This document shows positions 17,554 to 41,039 of a DNA stretch of 64,000 nucleotides, one piece after another. How positions within the stretch are numbered: position 1 is the first letter of the stretch; each line of letters begins with the position of its first letter. The notes under the pieces were generated by a model that made no database searches, was not told where the DNA came from, and saw only the letters and a list, made by a program, of their open reading frames with translations. The position numbers and the translations under genes were made by a program. Source of the DNA: Gracilinanus agilis (Eukaryota); the NCBI RefSeq assembly GCF_016433145.1, contig NC_058133.1:172480514-172544513 (forward strand), given 5' to 3'.

Positions 17554-18098
17554 AAAAGTAAATAAGAGAAAGAACTTAAGGAGTTCAATAAGGTCAGACT
17601 TCATATTCCTACATGGAAAGACGATATTTGTAACTATTAGTTTTTTATCATTATCATAGTAGTTAGAAGTATACATAGACAGAGAGTGTGGTAGTAAGCT
17701 GTTTAGAATGATAAGCCAAAAAAAAAATCTAGGGGTGAATAAAAGGATTTGCACCAAGAAATAGGAAGAGAGAAGTAAAATTATATAAATTATATCAAAT
17801 AAAGACGGGGGTGGGGAGCGAGGGGAAAACAATTACAGTGAAGGGGAGAATGAGGGTAGGGATGGATAATACTTACCTTACTCTCATTAGAATTAGCTCA
17901 GAGAGAGAACAGCCAGATTCTTTGGAATATAAAATCCTATTTTACCCTATAGAGAAGTAGAAGAGGAATAAGAAAAAAGGGGGGGTGAAGGGTTGGGAAG
18001 GGAGTGCTTAAAAGCAAAACACTGGTTTAGAGGGAAAAAGAGTGAAAGTAGAAAGGGCAGGATTAAAAGAGGAAATCAAGATAGAGGAGAATACACAG

Positions 18099-19767
18099 AT
18101 GGTAATCATGACTGTGATTGTAAATGCAATAAACTCACCCAGAAAAGGGAAGCAGCAGAGTGAATTAAAAAAAAAAAAACAACAACAATCTTAACATATG
18201 TTGTTTACAAGAAACACATTTGAGGCAAGGAGATACACACAAAGTATGGAGCAGAATCTATTGGACTTCAACTAAGATTAAAACAAAAATCAGGAGTAGC
18301 AATCATGATCTCAAACAAAGCTAAAGCAAAAATAGATCTGATTAAAATAGATGAGGAGGGCAATTACATCTTGATAAAATGGTAGTATAAGCAATGAAGT
18401 AATATCAGTACTTAACATTATATACACCAAATGATACAGCATCCATATTTTTAAAGGAGAAACTAAAGCTTAAGGAGGAAATAATAAAATCAAACTAATG
18501 GGGGGAACCTCAGCCTTCCTCTATCTGAACTAGGTTAATCTAACCAAAAAATAAATAAGAAGTGAATGAAATTTTAGAAGAGTTAAATTTAATAGCTATC
18601 TGGAGAAAATTGAATAGGGATAAAAAGGAATATACCTTCTTTTCAGCTGCACATGGTAATTATATAAAAATTCACCTTGTACCAGGGCATAAAAACTTTA
18701 CAACAAAATGCAAAAAAGCAGAAATAATAAATATAACTTTTTCAGATCATAATGCAATAGAAATTATAGTCAAGGTGTTATGGAAAGGCAAATTAAAGTT
18801 AATTTGAAACTTTTATCTAATTCTTCAAAATAGGTGGGTCAAAGAACATATCGAAACAATCATGGATTTTATTGAAGAGAATGGTAATGAGGATACAACA
18901 TATCAAACTTTATGGGATACAACCAAAGCAGTACTCAGGGGAAAGAAAAGGCAGATTGATGAATTGGGCATGCAACTAGAAAAAGAACAACTTAGAAATC
19001 CCCAATTAAAGACTAAATTGAAAATCCTGAAATATAAAGGAGAAATTAATAAAATTTTAAGTAAAAGAATTATTGAACTAGTAAGAATAGGAGTTGGTTC
19101 TATGAAAAGAAAAAAAATAGAGCATCAGTTAATTTGATTAAAAGGAAGAAGACAATCAAATTGCCAATATAAAAAATGAAAAGGGTTATTTTACCTCCAA
19201 TGAAGAAAAAATTAAAGCAATCATTTGGAGCTATATGACAATAAATCTGATAATCTAGGTGAAATAGATGAATAATTGCCTAGATTAGCAAAAGAAGAAA
19301 TAGAATACTTAATCCAATTTCAGAAAAATTGAGTAAACCTTCAATAAACTCCTCAAGAAAAAGTCCCAAGGGCCGGATGGATTCACAAGTGAACCCTATC
19401 AAACATTTAAAGAGCAATTAATCTCATTTGACAAAATAAAGTAGGAATTCTGCCAAATTATTTTTATGAGAACAAATATGATGCTGATAGGAAGACCAAA
19501 AACAGAGAAAGAAAATTGCAGACCAGTTTCCTTAATGAACATTGTTGCAAAAATCTTAAATAAAATACTAGCAAAGAGACAGCAATATATATATCACAAG
19601 GATTATTTACTTGACCATGTGGGAGTTATATCAGGCATGCAAAGTTGGTTTAATATTAGGAAAACTGTCAATATAATTGACCATATCAATAATCAAACAA
19701 ACAGAAATCACATGATTATCTCAGATAGGTGCAGAAAAAGGCTTTGACAAAATACAACACCCATTCC
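18099..19767 (+). pseudogene. L1 ORF2 5' part (endonuclease, Z domain, RT start)
   Basis: ORF-track fragments 18562, 18862, 19466 are L1-like (YTFFSAAHG, NYRPVSLMN, WFNIRK). Confidence 0.9.
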
Positions 19768-20478
19768 ATACACACATACACACATACAAGGTTTTGTATG
19801 TGATGTCTTAACTAAAGAGAGTAAGGTAAGTACTGTTTGACCTATCAAGGAACACAGGTTCTCTTGTTTTAACATGGCCAAGGTACTCTTTACTCATAAC
19901 TATATACATTATTTACACTATGTACATATGAAATAGTTTTAATGTGTCTGTGTATTGGACTTATGACCTAGCATGTTCTGCCTGGTTCATACTCAGCCTC
20001 TTCTTTAGAATCCTTCTTATCTATCAGCTAATGTTCTGATGCATGCATTCTAATGTGTGAATGTGCTTACTTATGCCTTTGATTTGTGTCTGAAAGTGTA
20101 AACCTTGTACCATTCAAACTTAAATCTTGCACAGCCAATCTTGTTGCCGTTGTGATTCTTCTGGTGAAGTTGTCCAAGTCACATAGGTGTTACAATAGTT
20201 CAGGTCGTTATGTAGTCCTTGTGCAGTGTCTCTTGTGTTGTCCTGATGTCCTTACGTTCTCTGGGATTTCATCTAGTCTTCATCTGTGTTGGATACCCAT
20301 TTTGACAGATGTCGATTTGATTGTAGAGTTGCCTTGGATCAGGAACCAGTGTGTGATTGTGTAACACTGTGTTGTAAAATTTTTGTGTTGCCACAAAATT
20401 TTCTTTGTTTTCCCCTTTTTTTCCTTTATGAAAGTCTTTAGAGTTTGGTATTGTCATTGATGTTATTTGGCTTTGTGT

Positions 20479-22890
20479 TTATTCATCATTGTTGCTGCTG
20501 AGGTCTTGTATGTATAAGTTTACAGATTGCTGGTGTCCATGTATGCTTTGAGTTTCTAACTGGTCTTTGGCTATGATCTGGCTGTCTGGCTGTTGCTGTA
20601 TGTTTATGCTTTGGCCTTCTGGCTGCTGCTGTTTGTCTATGGTTAGGTCTTTCTCTTGAGGCTTTTCTTTTGAGGACTTTATGTGTGTGAAGTGGTACCA
20701 TGCTTCTTTGCCATTGACTTTTGCTGCTGTGGGAGTTACTAGAATTATTTCATGAGGTCCAAACCATTTTGGTTCTAATGCTGATTTTTTGGTAAAGTTT
20801 CTAATGTATATGATGTCTCTAGGTTTGAAATTGTGCTAGCTATAGTCTGATGGGATTCTTTGTTGGATTAAGGCTAATCTGTGTAACTCATCTAGCCTTT
20901 CCTTTAATAGAGTGATATACTCATAGATCTTGTATTCTATACCAAAGTGTGACAGATAATTGGTGTCTTGTGGAGCTTTTCCATGCCATGGTAGTTGCCC
21001 ATACAGTAACTCGAATGGAGATAGAGGAGTTGAACTATTTGGCTGGCTACGGATATGGAAAAGTGCCATCAGCAGTGCATTTGGCCATTTGAGATGACTT
21101 TCTGAACACAGCTTTCCCAGCATTGTTTTAAGATGTTTGTTGATCCTTTCAATGTGCCTGGAAGACTGAGGTCTGTATATAGAGCATAAATGTCTTTTGA
21201 TCCCGAGCACCTGGTAAACTTGGTGTAGAATGGAATTAGCGAAATGACTACCAGAATCAGATGGAATTTTTGCAGGTATATAGAATCTGGGTGTTACTTC
21301 TCTTAGTAGGATCTGGGCTACAAATGCTATATTATTCCGCCTGGCTGGGAATGCTTCTGGCTATTTTGTTAATCTGTCCACTATGACTAATATGTACCTA
21401 TACCCTTGGCATCTGGGCATTGTGACATAATCAATCTGCAAGCATTCAGAGGAGTGTATGCTAGTTGTTTCCCTCCCATAGCTTTGACTCTGGTGATGGA
21501 TTGGTTATATTGCATGCAGACTTTGCAGTTGTCACACACTCTTTTAGTTTCTGTTGTGATGCCCATTGCGATCCAGTGTTTTCTTATAATGTCCACTAGA
21601 GCTAATATCCCATAATGACCCTTTCTGTGAATTGCTGTGCACAAGGGTGTGGTGCAGTAATTTCGGCAAAAAATGGTTTACCATAGCTGGACATCCACAC
21701 TCCATTTACTAGATCTGCCCCAAGATGATCTTGCCAATATTTCACTTCCTTTTGAGAGTATGCTTCTAGTAGTTGGTCTCTCCCTACTAAGGATAAATGT
21801 AATATTTTCAAAGGTCCAAATCTAGCTCCAAACTTTGTGATGATGTCCCCCTGGTGATTGCCTAACTATACTGGCCCCATGAGTCTTTGATGTGCACGAC
21901 AGTGCATCACAGAAACTTTGGATGGTAACTGGATAGCTTGTAACAATTCATTGATCAGTTTCCCATAGGCTATTGCTTTCCTGTTTGATGTTATGAATCC
22001 TCTATGTTTCCAGATTTCCCCTGATGCATAAACTACCCCAAAAGCATATTTTGAGTCTGTATATATGTTAACAGATTTTTCCTGTGCAATTTGGAGAGCT
22101 CTTGTCAAGGCTAAGATTTCTGCCCCTTAAGCAGAGATCTTTGGCTCAAGTGCTGTGAACCATAGAGTTTCTTCTTGAGTGGTAACTGAAGCCCCTGTAA
22201 AATGTTTGCCATCAACCCTATAACTGGAACCATCACAGAACAAAGTCAGATCTGCATTGACCAGGGGTATGTCTTATAAGTCCTCTCTGGTCTTCTGCAC
22301 AATCTCTAAGGTGTCACTGCAACTGTGAAGGCTATCCCTTTCCAATGGCAAATCAGGGATAAGTGTTGCAGGATTGATGTTCTTGCAATGATGGAAAGTC
22401 AGGTTCTTGTTGGTTAGTAATATCACTTGGCACTGGGAAAGACGTTGTGAGGTAAAAGCTTGGAGATTTGCATTCTGCACTGTGGTTTCGACTTGATGCG
22501 GGGAATACGATCTCGGCTCCCCTCCCAGAACTAGCTTTGAACTCTTCCTAACCATTAGAGCTGCAGTTGCGATTATCTTCAAACAGGAAACCATGCCTTG
22601 GATTACATGATCCAATGTGGAGTCTGAGGTCGTTACCAAGATATTGCATGAGAACACCACAGGCGTTCATGAATGAATAGGTGGAACAGCAGCTTATCAT
22701 GATCAGGAATGCCTAAAGCTGGAGATGATAGTATAGCAGCTTTTAATTTTTCTACTGCATGTATATGTTCTCTGTTGAGCTTCAGTGGCTCTGTGACAGT
22801 GTTCCTGGTTAATTCTGTCAAAGGTTTTCTATGAGTGAATAACCTGGTATCCACTGCCTACAGAAACTGGTCATGCCTATCATTGCCCGT
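20479..22890 (-). pseudogene. ERV pol 3' part: RT thumb/connection, RNase H, integrase
   Basis: AMIGMTSFCRQWIPGY; SSPALGIPD; AEILALTRAL..YTDSKYAF; HRKGH..CDNC zinc finger; PFELLYG; KWFGPHEI; stop at 20481-20479. Confidence 0.92.
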
Positions 22891-24969
22891 TGTTACAATA
22901 AAAAATGATAAAGACTGATAAAATGAGGGAAGTTCGTAGTTTAATTAAAGCCATGGCCATGTCAATAAAATATATAATTTGACTTCCAGTACGAGATGAG
23001 AAAAAAATCAATTGCTCTAATTAAAAAAAAGAGAATGTTTTAAAAATAAAAAATATATATATATAGCTAGAATTAGTGAAGGGTTTTTTTTACCCAAAAA
23101 TGAGATTCATTTTCTGTGAGTGTAAATGCATTTTACAAAATAGCAGATTCACAATGCACATTCAAATAGAGTACCATAATTTCTAATAACACATTTTAAA
23201 ACAATAAACAATGATGTTTAAAAATCATATACTTGTTACAAATTTTAAATCTTGGCTAAGAGTTTCTCAACAAACTCTGTAACTGCCTCCATATCAAAAT
23301 CTGATATTAAAAAAAACCTTCTAGTCTAAATTATCCTCAGGAATTGTAGATCCTTCTGATAGAAGTATACAGGAGCTCTTTCAGCTTCCTGTTTTTAAAA
23401 ATATCCCAGGTAGGAAATTTTCATGCTTCTACCCATTTAAGGCAATAATTTTTTTAATAATAAATTATTTTTTATAATAAAATATATAAAAATATATAAA
23501 AGTCCTTTAAGACAACAATTAGGATTTAAAGTAAAATTTAAAAAACCTCATAAAATTACAATTTAAATCTCAAGACATCGAAACCTCCAAGGTTTTATAC
23601 AATTACCAATATAGAATAAAACTTAAAAGACATGTACTCCTATAAGATGTTCATAGATGGTACATATAACAGCATTGTTTTGATACAGTAAAACCTTAAA
23701 TAAATTAGGAAATATAATAAAATCATAAGCAGAAACTTCATTAGCTTAAAATGATTTCAGTGCAACAGGAAAATCAACGAAATAAGCAAGATTAATTCAT
23801 AAAATTAATCAGCAAAATACAGTAAGATACAGAATCTTTTTAAAACCCATTTAGTTATGAGGTTTTAAAATCCACCTTTGGTCCAATTCAGAGTTCAAAT
23901 TCAGGGTCCTTATAATCAGTCTCTGCTCTTAGTTCAAAGTTCTGAGCAGGTATGGGGTGAATTTCTTCCCCTGAGTTTCAGTTTAATAATCACAAGAAAG
24001 TTTGAATAGGCCATGTGCCCGATGAACAGTAAACGCTAGTTCCAGGTGGAGGCGTGGAGTAGGGGCTAGAGAAAAGCTTAGGTCAGTTTTTAGAAAATCC
24101 CACGTGTAGAGATTGTGGGTGGGGGTTGGGAGGCTGCCTAGATCAGGCTTTAGAGAAAACACGTGGAGGGCTAGAATGGATTAAAAGCAAGAGTAGGGGT
24201 AATACTTTACAAATCTTTAGAGGCAGAGGCTGAAGCTGAAACGGCGGCACTCAGCAAGTCAGGGCTGGGGTCGCTCCTTGGAAATCTCAGGATTCGGTAG
24301 GCAGGAACGGAGGCCAGGTTGGTAGTTAGGGAAATCCACGGAGACGACAGCAGGAAACCCAGCATTCGATTACTGTCAGTAGGGGCCACCAGGCAAAAGA
24401 ATTTGCAGCCCAGCGGCAATTAAAACCATTGTCCCTCTTCCCTGTAAAGCAGCCTTGAGGCTGGGGAAAATAGGGAGAGGAACAAGAGCGGAAAAAGATC
24501 GTTTCTGAGACTCCAGGTCCCAGAGCCACATGGCAAGCAAAGCCGCTCTCCCCTTTCCCTCTGGAGAGGATTTTAAATACTCTCAGACTATCTAAAAAAT
24601 TTAGAGTCCGAATTTTCAACCTTCTGGTTGCCATCAATGTTACGATTAAAAATGATAAAGACTGATAAAATGAGGGAAATTAGTAGTTTAATTAAAGCCA
24701 TAGCCATGTCGATAAAATATATAATTTGACCACGCGTCTGATAAAATCTCTTCAAAGATACCGCCAGTGCCGCCCATCCTCGCTACGTAGCCAAGGAAGA
24801 GATCCTCTCAAGCCCAAATTTTAAGCTGCCCTATACGTGGGGACGTCTGACATCCCCACGTCCAAAACCGGAAACCAGAAACCCATTGGATCATGGGGAA
24901 TGTAGTCTCAAAGTCCCCGCGTGTCCACAGGAAGTTTTAAATGGCACCTCCCTGAATTCCAAACACACA
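22891..24969 (-). mobile_element. Non-coding LTR element nested in the ERV RT
   Basis: TG...CA ends; 4-bp TSD CCGT (22887-22890, 24970-24973); removal restores PLR-AMIGMTSFCRQW; ~95-bp direct repeat 22891-22985 vs 24638-24732. Confidence 0.88.
24638..24969 (-). repeat. Complete 332-bp LTR of the nested element
   Basis: TG...CA termini, CpG-rich U3, ATTAAA near 3' end on - strand. Confidence 0.75.
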
Positions 24970-25800
24970 CCGTAGTGGTTTCTTTGTCTTGGGCAGGCTC
25001 AACTTTTGTATGTCTGCAACTCTTCTTTGGGATATGCTTCTGGTACCATTCTCTAGTATGAATCCCAAATACTCAACCCTGGTCTTAACCCACTGTACTT
25101 TATTTCTTGCAATTTTATGCCTTCTCTTACACAGCTCTTCTGACAAGTGAATGCTGTCCCTTTGGCAAATATCTCCCATTGGTGACAGTAGTATGTCATC
25201 TACATAATGTACCATCTTGCTGTCAGTGAAAGAAATGAATTCTAAGTCCTTTTGCAAGATTTGGCAAAATATGTTGGCACTATTGACATACCCTTGTGGC
25301 AAACGACTCCATAACAGGCTCTTTCTTTCCTATGTGAAAGCAAAAAGCTTCTGGCTGTCTTTGTACACAGGCACTGAGAAGTAGGCTGAACTGAGATCTA
25401 AAATGGTGTACCACCTAGCTGAAGCTGGAATTTCAACTATGATTTCAGATGGACAAGGTACAACTGCATGAGTCTTTTCCACATAGTTGTTGATAGCCCT
25501 CAGGTCTTGAACCATTATCCACTGGGTGTTTCCTTCAGCATCTAGCTTTGCCTTTTTTATTGGCATAATGGGAGTATTGAATTCTGAAAAGCCATGGACT
25601 AGTATTCCTTGTTCTAGGAGACTCTGGATTATTGGTCTGATACCGGCCACTGCCTCTTTGCTAAGCTTGAATTGAGGTATCCTAGGTGGTACTCCTCCTT
25701 TCACTCTGATCTTTACAGGTTTAGCTGATAGGATTCTTCCTACATCTGGTAGGAAGATTTGGTAGCCCAGATGTCTTTAGGGATTGTATCAGGAATCTTG
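24970..25800 (-). pseudogene. ERV reverse transcriptase, 5' part
   Basis: PQFKLSKEA, NTPIMPIKK, VQDLRAIN, LDLSSAYF, LPQGYVNS, YVDDILL, PKTKKPLR. Confidence 0.93.
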
Positions 25801-25899
25801 TAGATGTTATCTTATTCTATTGTTAGTGCATCAGATTCCCTTTCCAATCTGTCCAAACAGAGGATTGGATGGTGTTTTAATGACTGCTTGGAAAAATGC

Positions 25900-26232
25900 A
25901 AATAGATTTCACCATTTGATTCACAATAAATGGTTGCAGTTAATTTGCATAGGATGTCCCTCCCTATTAGATTGTTTGGACATGATGGAAGCAAGAGGAA
26001 TGAGTGATCAAACTGGATGGGTCCCAATTTCACCATTTTGGGTTTAAATTTTGGTGCTTAATTGTGAGATTCTAGCAGCTCCTCTCACTTGTACATTCCC
26101 TTGCGTTTCACAATCCCTTGGCAAATGTTGGCGTATGCTGCACTCTGCCCCCATGTCTACCAAACCCTGAATTATTTTCCCATTAATTTCAATATAAATT
26201 ATTGGTTTACTAATGGTATTATTTTTGTGCAA
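25900..26232 (-). pseudogene. ERV aspartic protease remnant
   Basis: IYIEINGKIIQGLVDMGAECS (DTG-like) and CPNNLIGRDILCKL motifs; frameshifted. Confidence 0.88.
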
Positions 26233-27483
26233 AGGAAAGCAACTGGTTTAGTTGTCTTTGTGGCTTAAGATCAGTGTTATCAGATTCCAATGTCAGTATA
26301 TTAGACGGTTTACAGTAATACAATATGTCTGCCTCCATGAACAGATCACTTGAACATTCTGACCCTGTCTCTTCCCCCAGCTCATTTGTCTCCCTAGCAA
26401 CTGTGCCTGGCTTAGAATTTTCAGGGACTGCTCTGCTTGGGCAAAATGGCTGACTTGAAAAGTCAGTTACAACCTGATCTTTTATTTTCAAAGCTAGAGG
26501 TTTATAAGAGTTCCCTGTTACAGCTTCAGGGTGAGAGTTTGATGTGCTATCTTTTCATTTCACTATGCCAGGGTATCTCTCCTCTAACTTTGGGTTTATT
26601 TGATGGTAAACTTTGTCCCAAGTGAACTTAGTTTTCTCCCTTGGTCCCTCAGAATTCTCAAGCAAGCTAGTGGGATCTGATGTTAGAGCATTTACGTTTG
26701 GAAACTGTTTGGCTTCATTATGATTTTCAGGTTGAAATTTCCTAGCCTCAGGATTAAGAATTGATCTTTTGTTACAGTTACTGGCTGGGGTGGGTAAAAA
26801 GTCTGCCATTTTTGGCTACATTGTACTTTGAGTGGAGTGAATTGAAAAAATGTTTCTTTTCCCTCTTTTATAGAACACTGCCCCCTGGACTGGGATATAT
26901 ATGACTTTTCTCTTTTGCCAATATGTTCCCCTCTTTGTTTTTCTTTATTCGGTATGGGCTTTTGACTCCTATATGATATAAAGTCTTTTTCCCAACACAG
27001 GTATTTCTATTTGGCAGGCTGGTTTTAAGCTTTCCTTGCTTCTGACCAGACCCTCCGTGTCTTTGTCTTCTCACATCCCCATCTTATAATGAAGCATGTG
27101 CTGATTCAGTGTTCCCTACAAGAGTGTGTCCATCCCCAACATCTTCATTTGAGCTATTTCTTTGTACATTTCTAATTCCTCAGCAGTCTTTTGTCTGTTT
27201 ATGTTTTCAAATACTATGTATTGATTATCATTATTGGTACCTAACCATAGTACTTCAGCCTAATTCTCTGTTTTGCCTCTATCTTCATTGAGCTCAGTGC
27301 TTTCTCTCTTTATAGCACCCATCTGTGAATTGGATAAATTAGTGTCCTGGCTTCATTGGTGTCTCTGTCTCTCTCCCATCTTGAGGTACCTTTGCATATC
27401 CTCAAGTGAGGGAGTTTTTGAATTTTCTTTGCAATCATGTTTACAACATTGATGTTCTTTGTCGTCTTCTTTTTTGTTGTGAC

Positions 27484-28807
27484 TTATTTTCCCATTGCCT
27501 TGCTGTTTGTAAATTCAATTTGCTTCTTAAATTTATATTGCCGGGTCAGATGACCTGGCATAGGTAGCACTGTGGTACCTTGCTATAGGTTTTCTTAGGC
27601 CTGGAATAGGACTCTGTCTGCTTGTAGGTTTGACTTCTTGCTGTCTTCAAAGCTAAATTTTTAATCTCTCTTTCTTTGTCCTTTTTCATCTCTTTCAACT
27701 GCCTTTGCCAACTGCCTTTTCAGCTCAGCTATTAAGCTGTCCTCTGAATCTGACTCAGTTCTTGCTTTTAGTTCTTTGTTCTTAGAGTCATGTGTGTATA
27801 TATATGTTGCATGCTGCCTTAGTTCTTCCACTATTAGGGTTTCCCACTAAGGACAGCTCTGTTTAAAGTAGATTTGAATGGGTAAGGTGATCCCTTTTAT
27901 GAACTGCTTCCTTATGTGTGGTAGGGATTCTGCAGCCTGATCTTTGTGGAAACTCCAAAAATTCTCCACTCTCAATAAGCCTGTCCAGAAAAAGACTGGG
28001 GTGTTTGTCCTTGGCCTGCCTCAGTTTCTTATACTTATTCCATGCATTGGGTTATTTTGCATGGATTTTGAGTACTTCTAGGAGGTCTGTTCTACACCGA
28101 AGCAGGTATCTCATGTTGGTTTAAGAGGAAATATCGAGGTCTTGGTGATTTAATGGCCAGGAAGTGAGATTCTCATTGCTTCTAGTTTCTTCTAGGAATC
28201 TAGCTTTCTCAGAGGGGGTATAAAATTCATCCAGAAGAAATTCAACGTCACTAAAACTGGGGTTAAACAAATCAAAGGTCCTTTTTAATTCTTTTGCAGA
28301 CTTGTATGGGGACAGGAAGTATTTGGGGAATCTTCTCCTAAGGACTTCCAGGTCCTGGGCCATGGAAAGCTTTGTAAGTTTTCATCCATACCAATTCTCC
28401 ATCTGGTCTAAACTGAGCCTGATTGATAATGGGGTATAAAGATACTGTGTTAGGACCTACTGCTCCTGTCTCAGTCTGATTGCTGGCCTGTTTGTCATTG
28501 TTGGGTTGGGTAGGATTTCCTGTAGTCGAAGGCTTAGCTGCACTTGTGGCAATTGGGCTGTGTGTGCCTTTTCTATTGTCTCAAGCTGTAATATTGTATG
28601 GGAGTCTAAAGTTTGTCCCTCTCTTATTTTCCTATTGATCTCAATCATTTGTTTCATTTGCTCCTTCATAACCTACAGCAGCTCCTCATTTGTGTTCTTT
28701 CTAGTCCCCCATAACAGTTCTGTTGCCTTTTTGAGACCCCAAATTCCCTGAATCATTGTGATTATCATAGCCAATATTGTAGGCAGGTATGATATTAATT
28801 CTGCCAT
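27484..28807 (-). pseudogene. ERV gag (hydrophobic N-terminus, capsid, broken CCHC knuckle)
   Basis: ATG at 28807 in ACCATGG context; same frame through 28669 and 28363 ORFs; WNKYKKLRQAKDKHPSLFLDRL MHR-like; CYLC and GHLTRQY separated by a frameshift; TAA at 27486-27484. Confidence 0.8.
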
Positions 28808-28990
28808 GGTCAAAGCTAAATATTTATATAGGAATCATATATTGTCAGGAGTTTCGGGCAGTATTCAGGAATTATGTAGAACCAAAGGTTGAAAATTCCC
28901 TGCATTGCTGAATAGATAAACAGGGATAAAGTGGTAAAGATAAAGGTGACTCTTGCTATCCTCATGGTTCCTATACCCTCAGGTATCAGT

Positions 28991-29008
28991 TCCCTTATGG
29001 CTCAGCCA
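28991..29008 (-). other. Primer-binding-site-like sequence TGGCTGAGCCATAAGGGA
   Basis: TGG start 5 nt after LTR-terminal CA; partial resemblance to tRNA-Arg PBS (TGGCGAGCCAG...). Confidence 0.5.
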
Positions 29009-29013
29009 AAAAC

Positions 29014-29856
29014 TGTTAAAAAAAGGGTGGTGAAGAAACACAGATCTTTGTTGTATTGATAATAGAAGGGCTATGCCTCTCCCAGACTGACAGGCTCTAC
29101 TGGACTGAGTCTGCCTGGCTGTCTCCTTTTAATAGTTGCCCAAGCAAGTAACCAATGAGGAGTTGTGTGTGTTATCAACTTCTCTAGTTCCTTAGCCTGG
29201 GGTTGGTTTGGTTATTGATGTGGGCTAATACTAGTATGCTGGTTGGATAATGCTATGAATCTGTGTGAATAAATTTCCCTTCCTAATGGCTTTAGATGTT
29301 TTACCAATCAGGAAGGCACTCCAAACATTGACTTGAACTTAAACAACAGTATTTAATTCTTGCTCAACAAGGGGTTAGGAACAAGGGAAAGGGAAGAAGT
29401 TTGGGGGATGCTTTTGCTAACTAATTCAAGGAGATGATCAGAAACTATGGACGTTGTTGGATCAAATATAGGCTGGAGATTCTTCACCCTCTCGCTAACT
29501 CTGGCTTGACTTGACCGGAGCTAAGCCAAAGAATAGGGAAGGCTATTGATGTTTCCTTGATGTCAATATTACTGCTCTCTCACAGCTCTATTGTTTGTAG
29601 GTATGATACTTTCCTAAAGCTCTCAACAAGGATGCTAGATTGCAGGTATGGGCCTACCCATACTCCCAGATCCACCCTCCACCCAGCAATACTCAAAATT
29701 GAGTTCCTTTTGTGCTGTGCATCATGGGTATTTATAGGGGTGGGTCCAGCTGCCTTTTAGCCCTGGCTCAGGCCACCTGGGTACATTCCCAGGTCTCAGC
29801 CTACAATACTGTCACTCAAGGTGTCCTCTATCTTGTCCCAGAAGTTCCTTATTATA
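29014..29856 (-). repeat. 5' LTR region of the ERV (possibly composite of two LTRs)
   Basis: Ends ...TTAACA immediately before a TGG-starting PBS-like site; TATAAATA at ~29729-29736 and TATTAAAA at ~29126-29134 on - strand. Confidence 0.6.
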
Positions 29857-31794
29857 GCAAGTATCTGCAGTGGGGATAAGTTAGAAGCCTTCCCAATAAG
29901 ATCAGGAGTGAAGCAAGGATGCCCATTATCGCCACTATTATTTAATGTTGTGCTAGAAATGGTAACTTTAATAATTAGAGAAGAAACTGAAGGAATTAAA
30001 ATAGGCAATAAGGAAACTAGACTATCACTCTTTACAGATGATATGATGGTATAATTAGAAAATCAACTAAAAACTATTTAAAATAATAACTTTAGCAAAG
30101 TTGCAGGATACAAAATAAACCCACATAAATCATCAGCATTTCTACATATTTCCAACAAAGTCCAGGAGCAAATCATTCTAGACAATATAATATACTTGGA
30201 GATCTATTTGAAAATACAAACGCAGGAATTATATGAACACAGTTACAAAACACTTCACACAAATAAAGTTAAGTCTAAACAATTGGAAAAACATTAATTG
30301 CTCATGGGCAGGCTGAGATAATAGAATAAAAATGACAATCCTACCTAAATTAATTTACTTGTTCAGTGCCATACCAATCAAACTTCCAAAAAGCTTTTAT
30401 AGAATTAGAAGAAATAATAACAAAATTCATCTGGAAGAACAAAAAATCAAGAATATCAAAGGAACAAATGAAAAAAAATGTGAAGAATGGTGGCCTAATA
30501 GTACCAGATATTAAGTTGTATTATAAAGCAGTGATCATCAAAACAATCTGGTACTGGCTAAGAAATATAAGGGTAGATCAGTGGAACAGAATAGGAATAA
30601 ATGGCCTCAGCAATCTAGCGTTTGATAAACCAAAAGATCCCAGCTTTGGGGATAAGAACTTACTATTTGACAAACTGTTGGGAAAATTGGAAAACAGTAT
30701 GGTAAAAATTAGGTTTGGATCAATATATCTCACACCCTATTCCAAGATAAGATCAAAATGCATGTATGATTTAAATATAAAGAGTGATATAAGTAAATTA
30801 GAACATAGGTAGATTTTATGACCAAACAAGAGATAGAAAATATTACAAGATATAAAATGAATAATTTTGATTATATTAAATTAAAAAATGTTTTGGACTA
30901 ACAAAACAAATGCGATCACCCTAGAGCAAATATCAATAATATGGAAATAGATCTTGATCAATGACACATGTAAAACTCAGTGGAATTGCACATTGGCCGT
31001 GGGAGGGGCCTGGGAGGAGGGGAGGGGAAGAACATGAATCATGTAAATATGGAAAATTTTTCTTAATTAAAAAAATGCAACCAAGATTAGAAGGGGAACA
31101 ACAAAGTGGGGAAAAAATTTTATGACAGCTTTCTTTGATAAAGGTCTCATTTCTCAGATATATAAAGTACAAAGTCAAATTTATAAGAATATAAGTTACA
31201 CTCCAATTGATAAATGGTCAAAGGATATGAAGAGGTAGTTTTCAGATGAAGAAGTCAAATATCAATAATCATATGAAAAAATGTTCTAAATCCCTCTTGA
31301 TTAGAGAAATGCAAATTATAAGAACTCTGAAGGACCACCTTATACCTATCAGATTGGCAAATATGACAGTAAAGGAAAATAATAAATGTTGGAGGGGATG
31401 TGGCAAAATTGGGACACTAATACATTGCTGGTAGAGTTGTGAATTGATCCAACCATTCTGGAGGGCAATTTGGAATTATGCCCAAAGGACTATAAAACTA
31501 GGTCAATGTGCTAGAGATTTTTTTAAATGGGAAAGGACCTGTTTGTACAAAAATATTTATAGCTGCTCTTTTTGTGGTGGCCAAGAATTGGAAACTAAAG
31601 CAATGCCCCTCAATTGGGGAATGGATGAACAAACTGGGGTATATGATGCTGATGGAATACTCTTGTGCTATAAGGAATGATGAACAGGATGATTTCAGAG
31701 CAGGAAAGACCTACATGAAGTGATGCAGAGTGAGATAAGAATCAAGAGAACATTATACACAATAATTGAAACATTATGGAACAATCAACTGTGA
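29857..31794 (+). pseudogene. L1 ORF2 3' part (RT and C-terminal domain)
   Basis: [60 protein letters not shown]. Confidence 0.92.
30914..31072 (+). mobile_element. 5'-truncated L1 3'-UTR insertion inside L1 ORF2
   Basis: G-rich 3' UTR tract, A-tail, aaatgc duplication at both ends. Confidence 0.75.
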
Positions 31795-31871
31795 TAGATT
31801 TGCTATCAACAGTAATACAGTGATCCAGGACAATTCTGAGGGACTTATGAAAAAGAATGCTATCCACCTTC

Positions 31872-32107
31872 AATTTTTCTAACATTTCATTCACTTCCCT
31901 TCTTTATTATTTATTTTTTGGTTCAATTTGTCTAGTTCTAATAGAGGAAGATTAAGGTACCACTCTAGTATTGTTTTACTATCTATTTCCTCCTTAAGCT
32001 CCTTTAGTTTCTTCTTTAGAAATCTGGATGCTATACCATTTGGTGCATATATGTTGAGTATTGATATTTCTTCATTATTTATACTCTTTCATCAAGATTT
32101 ACATTAC
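31872..32107 (-). mobile_element. Inverted internal L1 endonuclease fragment inside L1 3' UTR
   Basis: Reverse complement encodes ISILNIYAPNGIASRFLKKKLKEL; flanked by CCACCT duplication. Confidence 0.75.
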
Positions 32108-34065: not shown

Positions 34066-34975
34066 GTCAGGAGAGAAAAATGAGTCATGTCATTGGGGAA
34101 GGGGATCAGCCATCGCCTGGGCCAGGAGATTCTACAACTGGCAACACCTCCTTTCTTGATGCAGTGACTAGGCCTTATCTCCTCCAGAGGTGGCAAGATC
34201 AACCAGTGAGCTGGGGTGACTGAGCTCCGGGGAGCTGCTCTGGGTGCACCAGGGGCTACAATGAGGCCTAGAGCCTTGGGGCCGGCCCTTGAAGATGTCG
34301 CTCAGGAAGCCCCAGGCTTTTCAGTCAACCAGGAAAGACCAGGCCTGAGCACTATGAGGAAAGAATAGTTGAGAAATTGCTGAAGTGAACAGATGTGTGA
34401 TTGGGAAGCAGCAGTCCAGGGCCGGGCAGGAATCTGCTTACTGTGGGCCCAGGACAAAAAGGCTGGCACAGGGAAGAGCAGGTCGGGGCAGTTTCAGTGC
34501 TGTAGTGATCAGGGCCTGGCACTTGGCCTTGGTCAGAGAAGCTGTGCCCTCTGAATTGTTTTGAATGCTGCCCGCTGGGTGTGGATGGCCCTTGGAGAGC
34601 TTCATCAAGGAAGGAAGGTCCGTGCCCCTGGGAATAGCTAGGTGGGGCCTGGGCACTCTGACACCAGGGATCTAGGGGGCTTCTTATAGGTGTCACCCAG
34701 GCCTGCAGGGCCATCACACTTAGCTGGCTGAGGAGAGCAGGAAGAGAAGAAAGTATCTCTCCAGAGGCAGGGATTCCCCTTAGCTCTGCAACTACAGAAA
34801 TGAGGCACAGAAAAGAATGACTGCTGAGGATGAAGCTCCTTCCTTCCCCTCCTCCAAGCCTATTGCCCTACCACCAAGGGGTGAAAGTGGGGAGTGGTCA
34901 CCCAAAAAGCCTTTGGAAGTGGGTGCCTCCTCTCAGGTCCAGGCCTCTGAGTGCACTGTCCCGCTGTTCCTACAG

Positions 34976-35066
34976 GTCTTGGCAGGCTTGCTGCATCTTG
35001 GCAATGTCCGCTTTGCTGACTCGGAGGATGAATCCCAGGTTTGCCAGCCACAGGAAGATGCTAAAT
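34976..35066 (+). CDS. MYO19: MYO19 exon (VLAGLLHLGNVRFADSEDESQVCQPQEDAK)
   Basis: ctacag| and |gtaaga; 91 nt; LAGLLHLGN motif. Confidence 0.96.
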
Positions 35067-35470
35067 GTAAGAGGGAAGGAGCTCACCACCCCTGCCTGGG
35101 AACCCTGAGGACCCAGGGGGGCTCCCAGGAACCAGGTTACAGGCTGATAAGAGGGCAGGCTGGCGCCCCGCAGGCTGGGGAAGGAGACTTGTGTCCGGGG
35201 AAGAGCCTGAATCTGGGACAAGGGGGGTGGGGAGAGCCTGGCGAAGATGCCGAAAGCACCCTCTCTGGCCCTTTGTGGTGCCGCGGCCGGCAGCAGCCTA
35301 GTGATGTGGGGCAGCCAGAGCGGGCCTTCTGTCCAGGGCCAGGCCGCAGGCGTGTCTGAGCTCCTTCCCCCAATTCCTCCAGGACCCGCACGGCCGGCAG
35401 GGGCCCAGGGGCTTTGCCGCCTCACTGGCCCGCCACCGGCATGTAACTGTCGCTGTGGTCCCCACGCCAG

Positions 35471-35642
35471 GTTGTGTAGCGACGGTAGCCTCTCTGCTCC
35501 AGATCCCCTGTGAGGAGCTGCTGGACACGCTCCAGGTCCGGAGGATCAGCGCCGGGAAGCAGCAGCAGGTCTTCAGGAAGCCATGCTCCCGGGCCGAATG
35601 TGAGACCAGGAGAGACTGTCTGGCCAAAGCCATCTACGGCCG
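35471..35642 (+). CDS. MYO19: MYO19 exon (CVATVASLLQIPCEELLDTLQVRRISAGKQQQVFRKPCSRAECETRRDCLAKAIYGR)
   Basis: cgccag| and |gtgagt; 172 nt; RDCLAK.IY.RLF motif. Confidence 0.95.
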
Positions 35643-35725
35643 GTGAGTGAGCCCAGCTGCTCTGTGGGGGTCTCCGCAGGGGGCCCCGGGCCCCAGGGCT
35701 CACCACCCTCCCTGACCCTCCACAG

Positions 35726-35799
35726 GTTGTTCGAATGGTTAGTGTTTGTCATCAATGGGAGCATCTGTGCAGAGCCCTCCTCTTGGAGCACCTTCATCG
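35726..35799 (+). CDS. MYO19: MYO19 exon (LFEWLVFVINGSICAEPSSWSTFI)
   Basis: ccacag| and |gtacgt; 74 nt. Confidence 0.95.
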
Positions 35800-37903
35800 G
35801 TACGTGTTCTTCGGCCTCCTCGCCTTTCTGACCCCTGGCCCAGGTCCTCCCTGGACCCCTTGGGCAGCTCCTTTCCCTCATTTCCTCCTTTGGAAAATGA
35901 GGGGATTAGACTAGATGATGGCAGCCCCAAGCATTTACTTTGCGTGTTCCCTCCCTGTATGAGGTGCGAGGGTGCAGGCAGAAACACTGTCCCTCCTCCC
36001 AAGGAGCTCCCATTCCGGTGGAGGAGGCAACATAAAAAAGTGACCCATAGAGAAGGTGAGGCAGAGCTGCTGGGGAGGCCTGGGAAGAGCCTCCTGTTGT
36101 ACCATCAGGGACGGGGCTATCCATTGGAGGGGAGGAGGGGAGGGCATTCCAAACGCTGCAAAGGTGTGGAGGTCAGAGATGGAGCAGTTTTGTGTGGCAG
36201 GAGAACCCTGGGGGCTGGGGGTTGGGGTCAAGCCTGCAGAGGGCTCCAGGGGTCTCTCTCCATAGCATCCAGAAGGGCCCATCCGCCTCCTGTGTGGGAG
36301 GAACTAATGGCTCTGTTGCTGATCTTGGCGGCTCCATCTGCTCAGCATTCCCCCCCACGCCAGTGTGCCCAGTCACCCTCTCCCCTGAAGCCGCCCTGGC
36401 TCCCTGGCCCTCCTAGGGTGCAGAGCTCGGAACACACATAAGCCCTTCATGGCCTGACCTCCATGGCTCTCCCCAGCTAATGAGACGCTGTTCCAGTCAC
36501 ATGCTCTGGGCTTGCGCCTCAATGTCTATTGGATGTTCCCTGTGAATACCTTCCCATATTCCTGCTCTCATGCCTTCGCGTGTCCCCAGCCTTACCTCCA
36601 CTTCCCAAACATGAGCCTCTCTCGAAGGGTCAGCTTGTGTGCCACCTCCTCTAAGTTTAATCATTACAAAACCTTCCTTGATTTCTCCAAGTTCTGGTCC
36701 CTTGGTTTATATTTGCTCATTTATGTACCTTTGTTCGGGCAGGTAGGTGGCACAGGGAATAGAGTACTCCTGAGTTCAAATCTGGCCTCAGCCATGTAGT
36801 GGCTAGGAGACCCTGGGCAAGCCACTTAAGCCTGTGGGCCTCAGTTTCCTCATTTGTAAAAATGAGCCAGAGAAGGCAATGGCAAGCCACTTCCCCAGAA
36901 GGAGAATCACGGAGACTCAGACGTGACTGAACAACAATCACAAACTCATGTTCTCTCACTGATGGGATCTGAGCTCCTCAAGGGTGGAGTTTCTGTTCTT
37001 TCCTCTTACCTCTGGAAGTGCCTGGTAAAATGGAAACGTAATCATTAAAACTTATTGAAGTGAAAGGGGAACCAAAGAAAAAGAGAGGGATGAGTTGAAT
37101 TAATTGAATGTCAGGCTTCTCCACACCCACAGGAAAGGGGGTGGCCAGGCATGAGCCCTCCCCTGGAATCCTGAGCCACCAGGTGGTCTGGTCCAACCCC
37201 TCATTTTACAGATGAGGAAAGGCGAGTATGGACCCCTAGTTCATAGCAGAGCCAGAACTGGATCTCAGGTTCTCAGGCTCCAAGTCCAGAGCTATTTCCT
37301 CTACACCACAACTTTGAAGTGTTAATCAAGTGCCTCCCCCTCCCCCGCCATGAACTTGGTTTCAGGGTGAGAGTATTTTTAAAACTGCATTTCATTATAA
37401 TGGATTTCCTTTGTAATCCCATGCACTTTATTTATTTTAAGCCCTTACCTTTCATTTAAAACATTATTCTGAAAAGGAGTCCATGGTAAGTTAAAAGTTA
37501 AGAATCCCTACATTAGGTCCTGGTTCTTTGGGCAGTGTGGGCACAGCACTAGCTACCATCATGGCAGAATGAGAGCTCCAAAGAGAAGCCCGAGTGTCAA
37601 GTTTCTGCCCCGTCTGCCACAGATAAAGAGAGGGCATGGAGAGAACCCAGGTGCTTCCCCTGGGGAAGGAAGGTTTGCTTTACACGTCCTAGAACAGACG
37701 CTCTCCTCACCTCGGCTTTCCGATAGACATCGTGCCAGGCTTGTGCCAGAGAGGGGCCCTGGGGACTCCTGGATCCAGTGTCGGCCTCTAGCTGGAGTCA
37801 GACTGCAGATTCAGACAGGTGGGGGGCAGCCAGCCGCCCCCCCCCTCCATAATAACTGTGCTTTCTCCCCCACTCCTTCCTTCTGCACCTTCCTGTGGCC
37901 CAG

Positions 37904-38025
37904 GGCTCCTGGATGTGTACGGGTTTGAATGTTTCCCCAACAACAACCTGGAGCAGCTATGCATTAACTATGCCAATGAGAAGCTGCAGCAACACTTTGT
38001 GGCTCACTACCTGCGAGCCCAGCAA
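37904..38025 (+). CDS. MYO19: MYO19 exon with switch II ([41 protein letters not shown])
   Basis: cccag| and |gtacgg; 122 nt; DVYGFE and [13 protein letters not shown]. Confidence 0.97.
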
Positions 38026-38326
38026 GTACGGAGCGAGGGGCAGGGTGGGCAGGGAAAGCGGGGAATGGGCTGTATGGCTCAGTGGCCACAGAACTGTGGC
38101 TAGGGCTGGGTGGTGCGGGGAAGATGACTAGCCTCTTTGGTGCTCCTGAGTGCACCTTCTGGTGCAGGGCCTTAGGAACAAGGCAGGGTTTCATCCCAAA
38201 CTGCTGCCTCCTTAAATGCCCATATTTGATTTGGCCTGACCTCTAGAGGCCAGAATGTCCAGGAGCTCAGGTCACTCCTGCCCCTTCCCCCTGCTCACCC
38301 TCAACCCTGCTTTTCTATGGCTCCAG

Positions 38327-38440
38327 GAGGAATATGCTGCAGAGGGCTTGGAGTGGTCTTTCATCAGCTACCAGGACAATCAGAGCTGCCTGGACCTGAT
38401 TGAAGGAAATCCTGTGAGCATCTGTTCCCTCATAAATGAG
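38327..38440 (+). CDS. MYO19: MYO19 exon (EEYAAEGLEWSFISYQDNQSCLDLIEGNPVSICSLINE)
   Basis: ctccag| and |gtgaga; 114 nt. Confidence 0.97.
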
Positions 38441-38762
38441 GTGAGAAGGAAAGGGGGTGGGGGGCACTGGGCTGATGAGTCACTTGAGTACAGAAGGTTT
38501 GAGCCTCAGTGGGCATCCACACTAAATCCAATATTGTGAGGGCCCCCCTCCCCCAAGTGGAGAAGACAGTGAGAGCTACTTAAGGAGGAGAGAACGGTGG
38601 CTTGGCCCATGACTAGCCACTGCATTGCCAGGAGGGGGAGGGAGGAAGGAAGGAAGGGTAGGGAATAGCCTGAGTTTTAAAACCACAGGAATAATCAGAA
38701 CAGTGTAAATGTAGTTTCTTTGTTCTTGCTCTCATCTTCATTCTCGTGTTGTTTCTATGCAG

Positions 38763-38939
38763 GAGTGTCGCCTCAATAGATTGTCCAACAGCATCCAGCT
38801 CCAGACTCGAATTGAGAAGGCCCTGTCCAGCAATGCCAGCCTGAGCCGAAACAAGCTTAGCAAGGAGCCCAATTTTATCATCTCTCACTATGCTGGTCCC
38901 GTGCAGTATCAGATCGAGGGCATGGTTGAGAAAAATAAG
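38763..38939 (+). CDS. MYO19: MYO19 exon (ECRLNRLSNSIQLQTRIEKALSSNASLSRNKLSKEPNFIISHYAGPVQYQIEGMVEKNK)
   Basis: tatgcag| and |gtcagc; 177 nt; HYAG.V.Y...G.VEKNKD motif. Confidence 0.96.
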
Positions 38940-41039
38940 GTCAGCAGAAAGCAAGGGAAGCCTGGATCCTTAGTTACGATAACAGTGCTCAGTGACCTTT
39001 AAAGAACTTCCTACAGAGGGCTTTTACCAGATACTCAGAGGTGGAAAGGGAGGGTCTGTTCTATCAGATCCCCAAGGGGTGGTCTTTCAGCCTCCTTGAT
39101 GTGAAGATGTTTAGAGAGAGTGAACCTCCAGCCTTCCTTGGCAGCTTGTTCTGCCAAGGAACTCCCATTTGTGAGAACTCCCTACAGGTTCCATCCACTC
39201 CCCATGGTCCTGTCCTCTGCTTTGTGTCAGACACTGCCCTGGGCTCCAGGGACCAAAATGAAACAGGCTCAAGGTACTTACCTAAGACAATAATATGTAC
39301 ACATGGAGAGAGTTATGGTTTAATTTTGGGAGGGTCACAAAAAACTTAATGGATATGATGGTGCTTGGGCTGATTCTTACAGGAAGCAAGGATTCTCTGG
39401 GGTAGAAGTAAGAAGGGAACAATGCAAGTCTAGAAAAGCATGGAGCAGGATATTGGAATGATACATTCGAGGGACATCAAGAAGGGCAGGATAGTTTGAA
39501 TGGACCAGAGGGTACAAAGAGAATAATATCAAATAGGGTTGGGGGTCAGATCATCAAGGGCTTTAAATGCCAGAGGAGGAATGTGTGTTTGATCCCAGAA
39601 GGCACTAACCTCTGTAGTATATTGAATTTGGAGAGTGGCCTGGTAAGATCTTAGGACAGTCACCTTGGCAGTTGTGTAGACAGACTTGAAGGAACACCAA
39701 ATGAGGAGCTTAATTCAGTGGTCCAGTGAGAGGTGAACCAGGGTAATGGTCATTGGGTAGAGAATGGGATAGGTTCAAGAGATGTTGTGGAAGTAGAAGT
39801 GGCAGAATTTGGCAAATGATCAGATAAGTGGAGTGATGGAGAGTGAAGAGTGGAGGATACTACCAGGTTGCAAACCCTGAAAGATGAGTGTCCACAACAG
39901 ACATAGGGAAGGTCAGAAGAGGGATGAATTTCATTTTATAGATAATGAGTTTGAGATGTCTATGAGACAGCCAGCTTGAAATATCCAGGAAGTAGTTAGT
40001 AATGTAGGACTTGGAACTGGGCATATAGACCTAAGAATCATATCCAAGTTATAGTTAAACCCCCAGGGAGGATCCAGGGATTGAAATGGAATGGTTAGAC
40101 AGATTAGGCAGAAGGAAGGCCAGGAGAGAGCAGCAGCCAAAAAAGAAAAGAGAATGTATCCAAGAGGAAAAGTGTGGTCAGCAGCATGCAAAACAGAAAG
40201 GTTGAGATGATGAAAATTTAGACACAGAAGTAAATTCCTCTGCCTGGTCCAGAAGTGCACAAAAAGATGGCCAGAAGTTGGTAGAGGCTGGAAAAAAGGG
40301 ATTAGACCTGGGAAGCCAGCATATGTGCAAGTGTCCAGTCTACAACTCACAGGGAGAGGAGCCATACTAGGGAAGGTACAGCATGGAAGCCAGCCAGTGT
40401 GAGCTACACTAACTTCCAAGTTCCAGTATTGCCTGTCGGAACCAGGATAACTCTGTGCCTGATGCCAGTGTGGTCCCCATGAGGGCCTAACAAAAACCAG
40501 AGGATGGAACCTGCTCCTGATCAGGGATTGTGTAAGGAGACAACAAATGCTTGTCAAGGCTGGAATCCAAAGTGACCAGGAGATTTAGAACTAAACCAGG
40601 GATTGAAGGTAGAGAACAGCCATCCTCACCCCCATCAGCAGCAGGGAAAGGAGCAAACAAAGCCTACCTTAACCCATCTATGAGGGTAGGAGGGGACTGC
40701 CTGAGCACAATATTTTATGGCTAGAAGTATGAGTAAACAGAAGAAAACAAACATGAAAAAATATCCCAAAGGTAAACTCCAAAGACAGCAGCCCCCTGCA
40801 ATAAGAAATTCAGAGGAAAAGAATGACTTGGTCACAAGAACTACAAAAGTGACCAGAAGAAATGAAGTAGGGGATTTAAAAATGAAAGAGAGAAAACCTA
40901 GATCTACCAATTAAGAGATCATTGGTATATTTGGAGAAAGCAATTATTGTTGAGTGGGATGGCAGGTAGATCGCAGAGGGTTGAGGAGTGAGAAGAGAGG
41001 AAGTAAGTGGGGACAGTGAGTACAAATGGCCCTTTTTTT

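Follow-up and report, generated by a model that had tools for sequence, protein, structure and literature searches.

A class I marsupial provirus with two hydrophobic segments at the predicted N-terminus of Gag

Membrane targeting of Gag settles whether a retroelement leaves the cell, and the known solutions are myristate, basic patches, dependence on Env (foamy viruses) and the short leader of the intracisternal A particle (IAP). Which solution was used by a decayed provirus of class I type in the marsupial Gracilinanus agilis is the question raised by the locus analyzed here, a stretch of 64,000 nucleotides (contig NC_058133.1, positions 172,480,514 to 172,544,513; "the window", to which all positions refer). 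The Gag of this endogenous retrovirus (ERV), encoded on the minus strand, appears to carry two N-terminal hydrophobic segments (H1 and H2) and no glycine at position 2 (Gly2), and with a probability of roughly 0.6 these segments form an integral anchor that replaces the myristoylated matrix. An earlier sequence-only reading of the window had proposed a single signal-anchor helix and a retrotransposon targeted to the endoplasmic reticulum (ER).

The N-terminus of Gag

The sequence-only reading had placed the start of Gag at the ATG at 28807, and its description of that site was accurate: the ATG lies on the minus strand in an ACCATGG context, opens the peptide that was quoted and stands 201 nt from the TGG at 29008 of a site resembling a primer-binding site (PBS). 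The start itself was not confirmed. A homologous protein of 150 residues (P0014) aligns with its residues 1–46 to 28965–28828, starting at an ATG (39% identity), and with its residues 46–132 to 28828–28568 in another frame (51% identity), carrying a Leu at the position of Met 28807. The translation start of Gag is probably the ATG at 28965 rather than that at 28807. The switch of frame in the alignment at 28828 means that the window copy is frame-broken near this position, where other contigs show a cluster of indel rows and loose ends (28828–28834). A different ATG, which the earlier reading had named as evidence against its model, was therefore found upstream, although not in Met-Gly form: none of the three ATGs upstream of 28807 is followed by Gly, and Gly2 is absent at both 28965 and 28807. 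Since the upstream ATG adds a second hydrophobic segment, the idea of a membrane anchor is strengthened while the one-segment model gives way to a two-segment N-terminus. The claim that the frame runs into the capsid with only isolated stops was not confirmed; besides the break near 28828, the frame of ATG 28807 leaves the gag register between ~28560 and 28365, where a capsid-start-like motif stands in another frame. Other copies vary in length at both breaks.

The predicted order of the Gag in this family is H1, loop, H2, basic residues, coiled-coil-like helix, spacer, p30-type capsid and one zinc knuckle. The corresponding features of the window are as follows (P0012 and P0013 are opossum homologues described below).

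28991..29008, minus strand: PBS-like site, starting with TGG (at 29008), read from the sequence
28828..28965, minus strand: probable true Gag start with ATG, H1 and a loop of ~25–30 residues; out of frame with the rest of Gag in the window copy
28727..28807, minus strand: internal Met, hydrophobic/amphipathic H2, then basic residues
28560..28726, minus strand: helical, coiled-coil-like segment with one stop codon that is absent from most covering contigs
27690..28420, minus strand: p30-type capsid that includes the major homology region and is interrupted by stops and frameshifts; 42–47% identity to P0012/P0013
27510..27600, minus strand: single decayed CCHC zinc knuckle (tblastn of P0012; zf-CCHC in P0012)

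The best mean Kyte–Doolittle hydropathy over 19 residues (KD19) is 1.84 in H2, and none of 5000 base shuffles was both open and equally hydrophobic, so that the apolar stretch pointed out earlier is real and beyond chance. H1 reaches a KD19 of 1.56, which was equaled by 50 of 5000 shuffles. The coiled coil that had been suggested downstream is weak in the window, with 5 of 8 heptad a/d positions, and P0012 is the only protein in which it is clear (8 of 8).

A full HMMER scan with the window gag frame read through stops returned 14 matches at E <= 0.001; ten such matches were looked up and comprise six gene models of the opossum Monodelphis domestica, one pheasant protein and three without a name. 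Two of the 14, the repeat P0022 and the chimeric model P0016, were left aside, and six others (P0015, P0017, P0019, P0020, P0021, and P0024) start at or close to the capsid, which makes them uninformative on the N-terminus. Hydropathy was analyzed in the seven homologues with sequence before the capsid. Two apolar segments were found in P0012, P0013, and P0014 and one in P0023 and P0031 (a single 90% cluster). These five of the seven contain 19-residue windows with KD values of 1.5–2.55 within the first 75 residues, and no such window occurs elsewhere in the three proteins that were scanned whole. P0013 and P0031 reach 2.1–2.55 with uncharged runs that are typical of true spans. None of the seven carries Gly2, in agreement with the earlier statement that a myristoylation site is missing. 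The residues before H1 include one or two basic and no acidic ones, and the 15 residues after H2 include four to five basic ones (window, P0012, and P0013); the latter stretch of P0014 contains two basic and two acidic residues. The one-helix relatives P0023 and P0031 have an acidic N-terminus, with five basic (and four acidic) residues after the helix.

No Gag_MA match was found in Pfam for the homologues, and a PDB profile search gave nothing over positions 1–170. The AlphaFold model of P0012 contains long helices at residues 2–42, 50–82, and 88–130, at a confidence (pLDDT 48, pTM 0.25) too poor for a fold search, and a feature search on P0012 residues 1–135 (Atlas) gave no usable match. Late-domain motifs are absent from all four marsupial Gags that were inspected and likewise from the bird control (pheasant P0025), which makes their absence uninformative. 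No related loci were found among viral contigs (RT, that is reverse transcriptase, query) or metagenome contigs (Gag alignment and integrase queries); word-index protein searches, which are insensitive, returned nothing for the capsid query and P0012 only for the Gag alignment. P0012 (XP_007499152) and P0031 (XP_056658484) are uninterrupted Gag open reading frames (ORFs) of 520 and 570 residues that are annotated as uncharacterized and may represent young copies or co-opted genes.

Variation among genomic copies

Other copies of the element were compared using 41 contigs of X1, the one public run with good coverage of the element and possibly from the source sample; these contigs cover 28726–28975 with a likeness of at least 80% and yield 33 difference rows. 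Codons 3–16 of H2 contain 12 differences (four silent, seven apolar-to-apolar, and one apolar-to-polar) and no indel row. This bias toward silent or apolar changes (11 out of 12) has a P value of 0.004–0.005 against single-substitution nulls, the sites not being independent. No difference row falls on ATG 28807 or codon 2, so no form with Gly2 reaches 10%. The upstream segment H1 shows 18 rows (seven silent, five apolar, and six other) and no stop, and three rows between H1 and H2 were left unclassed. H1 is backed by homology and, less cleanly, by the copies. Conservation of the hydrophobic N-terminus is supported across the copies and in the opossum relatives alike.

The X1 contigs sum to a depth of ~500–1000 at the gag start and of up to 27000 across the long terminal repeat (LTR), against a depth of ~30 for single contigs; depth is not copy number, and the pattern points to tens of internal copies beside many solo LTRs.

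Lineage

The best matches of the window RT, which has a YVDD motif, are a skate ERV (52%), WEHV1 (44%), and bird class I Pol (38–45%). In an RT tree of ten rows, with no class II, class III, or snakehead retrovirus (SnRV) row among them, the window pairs with opossum P0017 (93/90) and groups with WEHV1 and the skate ERV; the path distances to WEHV1 (2.03) and to bird class I (2.31) are roughly equal. Three marks of class I (gamma/epsilon-like) ERVs are present: a p30-type capsid, a single zinc knuckle, and an integrase C-terminus of the type found in murine leukemia virus (MLV). Pfam Gag_p30 matches P0013 above and P0012 below the curated cutoff, the homologues match zf-CCHC, and their profile matches p30-type capsid structures at 9e-19. 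A capsid tree, also of ten rows, joins the window, P0012, and P0013 in one branch (98/96), P0031, P0017, P0018, and P0015 in a second (92/94), and sets the bird-type rows apart (99/98). The hydrophobic N-terminus may have had a single origin or multiple origins, both being compatible with this tree. RT and capsid place the element as a deep lineage of class I marsupial ERVs, as the sequence-only reading had proposed for its class and host group.

Identity with OVEX1 or class III was rejected on the RT matches and Gag_p30, and membership of the IAP family on pol, which in the window is not of class II (beta-like). The cyclin-type accessory genes that mark epsilonretroviruses were not seen in this provirus, whose 3' end is deleted.

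Provirus layout and genomic setting

The remaining parts of the provirus are arranged as follows.

20479..29854 (LTR through integrase), minus strand: decayed provirus of class I type with LTR, PBS-like TGG, gag, a 430-codon stretch, protease, RT, RNase H, and integrase
29014..29854, minus strand: 5' LTR of ~840 bp; uneven loose contig ends at 29854, summed contig depth far above the internal part, CA end before the PBS
26200..27500, minus strand: A-rich stretch of ~430 codons between knuckle and protease, with long stop-poor frames
24968..26200, minus strand: protease and RT (Pfam RVP, RVT_1)
20479..22889, minus strand: RT connection, RNase H, and integrase with a C-terminal tail of ~65 residues (tblastn with WEHV1 Pol; MLVIN_C, E 2.9e-15)
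19790..20478, minus strand: stretch of ~690 nt 3' of the pol stop, up to the point where the deletion joins it to the flanking L1; no 3' LTR

The A-rich stretch at 26200–27500 is much longer than the usual junction of knuckle and protease, and Pfam gave nothing there beyond one weak match at chance level. The region after pol (19790–20480, minus strand) is likewise A-rich with more stop-poor frames, and is neither env nor LTR. Within pol lies a nested LTR element (22890–24967, minus strand) whose terminal repeats match over 93 bp at 94% and which has a 4-bp flank resembling a target duplication; it has no Pfam match and is probably non-autonomous.

The provirus interrupts one L1 ORF2 on the plus strand (17900–19790 and 29855–32000), whose protein runs to ~19780 and again from ~29855; roughly 25 codons of L1 ORF2 are presumably gone at this site. 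No second LTR was found within the 64-kb window and the L1 is broken off, from which it follows that a deletion took the 3' end of the provirus, including its 3' LTR, together with a short part of the L1. The deletion junction is (CA)n-like. Exons of a myosin head, probably of a class XIX myosin, lie on the plus strand at 34975–39000. In run X3, from a second organism of the same study, the element is almost uncovered at 80% likeness over 27800–29860 and the L1 edge is covered; contigs cannot prove absence.

Membrane anchoring and its alternatives

An integral membrane anchor of Gag is predicted with good confidence from the segments described above. Translation would begin at 28965. At the ER translocon, H1 would function as signal or signal-anchor and H2 as the stop of transfer, with the short loop between them in the lumen. 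The basic residues after H2 would then keep coiled coil, capsid, and knuckle on the cytosolic side, available for RNA packaging and for multimerization through the coiled coil and capsid before the protease frees the capsid. According to the positive-inside rule the flanking charges predict a cytosolic capsid in both the one-helix and the two-helix layout, as assembly needs and unlike glyco-Gag. Leaky scanning to ATG 28807, which is internal and conserved, could yield a shorter Gag with one helix.

The ER would be the first membrane met by such a Gag. Most simply, particles would assemble on the ER or another internal membrane and bud into it, as in IAP; the chance of this is somewhat short of even, and traffic to the plasma membrane is also possible. 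Internal budding combined with loss of env is possible rather than probable. About equally tentative is the full scenario, in which a translocon-inserted transmembrane hairpin took the place of the matrix, spread became ER-budding and env-free, and class I reached an IAP lifestyle by an independent route that includes one-helix and two-helix layouts and the intact opossum Gags.

Several observations weigh against the anchor interpretation and what follows from it. The hydrophobic moment of H2 in the window is 1.57, compared with 0.35–0.77 in the homologues, and so strongly amphipathic a helix could lie in the plane of the membrane. Six of the 18 differences in H1 are neither silent nor apolar, and H1 has five single-contig indel rows, two of them away from the break at 28828. 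Clear sequence homology across H1 is limited to P0014, P0012 and P0013 being alike in layout and not in letters, and P0018 and the bird control P0025 lack a hydrophobic segment. The absence of Gly2 from gene models is weak evidence because P0025 lacks it as well. ATG 28965 stands just 43 nt from the PBS start, a very short leader, so that the packaging signal would overlap the coding region. At 80% likeness the depth, again not a copy number, points to only tens of internal copies and no megafamily. Finally, env may have lain further 3', given the deletion in the window copy.

The last point bears on the best surviving alternative, an integral anchor in an ordinary infectious virus whose Gag followed the secretory path and budded with Env at the plasma membrane, H1 perhaps doubling as the signal peptide of a spliced Env. 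Class I env usually starts at the end of pol. The ~690 nt after the pol stop, beyond which the provirus is deleted, contain no Pfam env match and no early signal-like start; if H1 were the spliced Env signal, no signal would be expected there. H1 is signal-peptide-like and close behind the PBS, and SnRV reportedly has a predicted Env signal peptide upstream of gag (a spliced leader) and an Arg PBS. The presumed lack of myristoylation and the N-terminal coiled coil of SnRV Gag (PMC2717909) fit this alternative, as does env in the dasyurid class I clades MEGrv 1–3 (PMC11334065). However, no donor-like GT variant right after H1 was seen among the other copies, at low cover, and the RT groups with WEHV1 and the skate ERV in the tree described above, which did not include SnRV. 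We consider this alternative unlikely.

Less likely still are amphipathic helices lying in the membrane plane on a coiled-coil substitute for the matrix, a peripheral mode of binding that would be an old trait like the Gag of Bik-1, foamy viruses, or OVEX1. The high moment of H2 in the window and the long helices modeled at low confidence in P0012 would agree with it, and in zebrafish the Gag of Bik-1 owes its presence in the membrane fraction to an N-terminal coiled coil (PMC12067270). The uncharged runs with KD19 of 2.1–2.55 in P0013 and P0031 argue for spans instead, and the Atlas search on P0012 1–135 provided no usable match to lend it support.

An accessory membrane form resembling glyco-Gag, in which an upstream start yields a luminal capsid and structural Gag starts internally, is very improbable. 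Gammaretroviruses including koala retrovirus (KoRV) have upstream in-frame hydrophobic leaders (PMC4528783), the window copies and P0012 have an internal Met ahead of H2, and gPr80 was the second Atlas feature match (score 0.85, a lead only). Yet no homologue has Met-Gly after the leader, P0014 lacks a Met between H1 and H2, and basic residues follow the last span rather than just preceding it. An upstream ORF encoding a separate FAST-like small protein (PMC11952523) was rejected because P0014 reads through into Gag. Chance hydrophobicity in the T-rich leader of a decayed copy (28808–28965 is 35% T) has a negligible probability and is largely refuted by the protein-level homology, the shuffles, and the pattern of copy differences.

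Comparison with known systems

A search of the open-access literature found no account of a Gag with a membrane-spanning N-terminus among class I ERVs of marsupials. Missing myristoylation is already known; a hairpin anchor in place of the matrix appears to be new. If true, a structural Gag with membrane-spanning helices would add a further solution to the targeting problem and would allow a test of whether ER retargeting of Gag repeatedly accompanies loss of env outside class II. Roughly 10% of the opossum genome consists of ERVs (PMC13709493), and 77 gag-bearing loci belong to a single placental ERV family of this animal (preprint 10.64898/2025.12.19.695612); the lineage may therefore be relevant to an element class that is both abundant and expressed.

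The glyco-Gag of MLV and KoRV gains a hydrophobic stretch before Gag from an upstream in-frame start (PMC4528783), as a CUG-initiated extra form beside normal myristoylated Gag, whereas the leaders of the window and its homologues have neither Met-Gly nor matrix behind them. SnRV and OVEX1 share the presumed lack of myristoylation and the coiled coil; the available text of PMC2717909 describes no transmembrane Gag segment for them, and their phylogenetic position is near class III or intermediate, whereas the window capsid matches Gag_p30. Bik-1, a lokiretrovirus, uses its coiled coil as the membrane-targeting part, and since its non-myristoylated Gag goes to the plasma membrane fraction (PMC12067270), ER budding cannot be deduced from a missing Gly2 alone. 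It is a non-autonomous element of another clade without a zinc knuckle, and the words "hydrophobic", "transmembrane", and "myrist" are absent from the main text of that paper. Among marsupials, MEBrv 3 of dasyurids has lost env and spreads within the cell (PMC11334065); it belongs to class II, and the available text of that source does not address its Gag N-terminus.

Counterparts in the opossum are the models XP_007499152, XP_056674145, XP_056675163, and XP_056658484, which have the same type of Gag and are annotated only as uncharacterized or PFC0760c-like proteins. The first two fall in the clade of the window (98/96); the other two have one helix and belong to a separate branch. The Gag of mouse IAP has a hydrophobic, non-myristoylated N-terminus, a property that the window element shares. 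IAP Gag by itself makes particles that accumulate in the ER (preprint 10.64898/2025.12.19.695612). In contrast to IAP, a member of class II, the window element combines a class I pol and a p30 capsid with two hydrophobic segments and a coiled coil.
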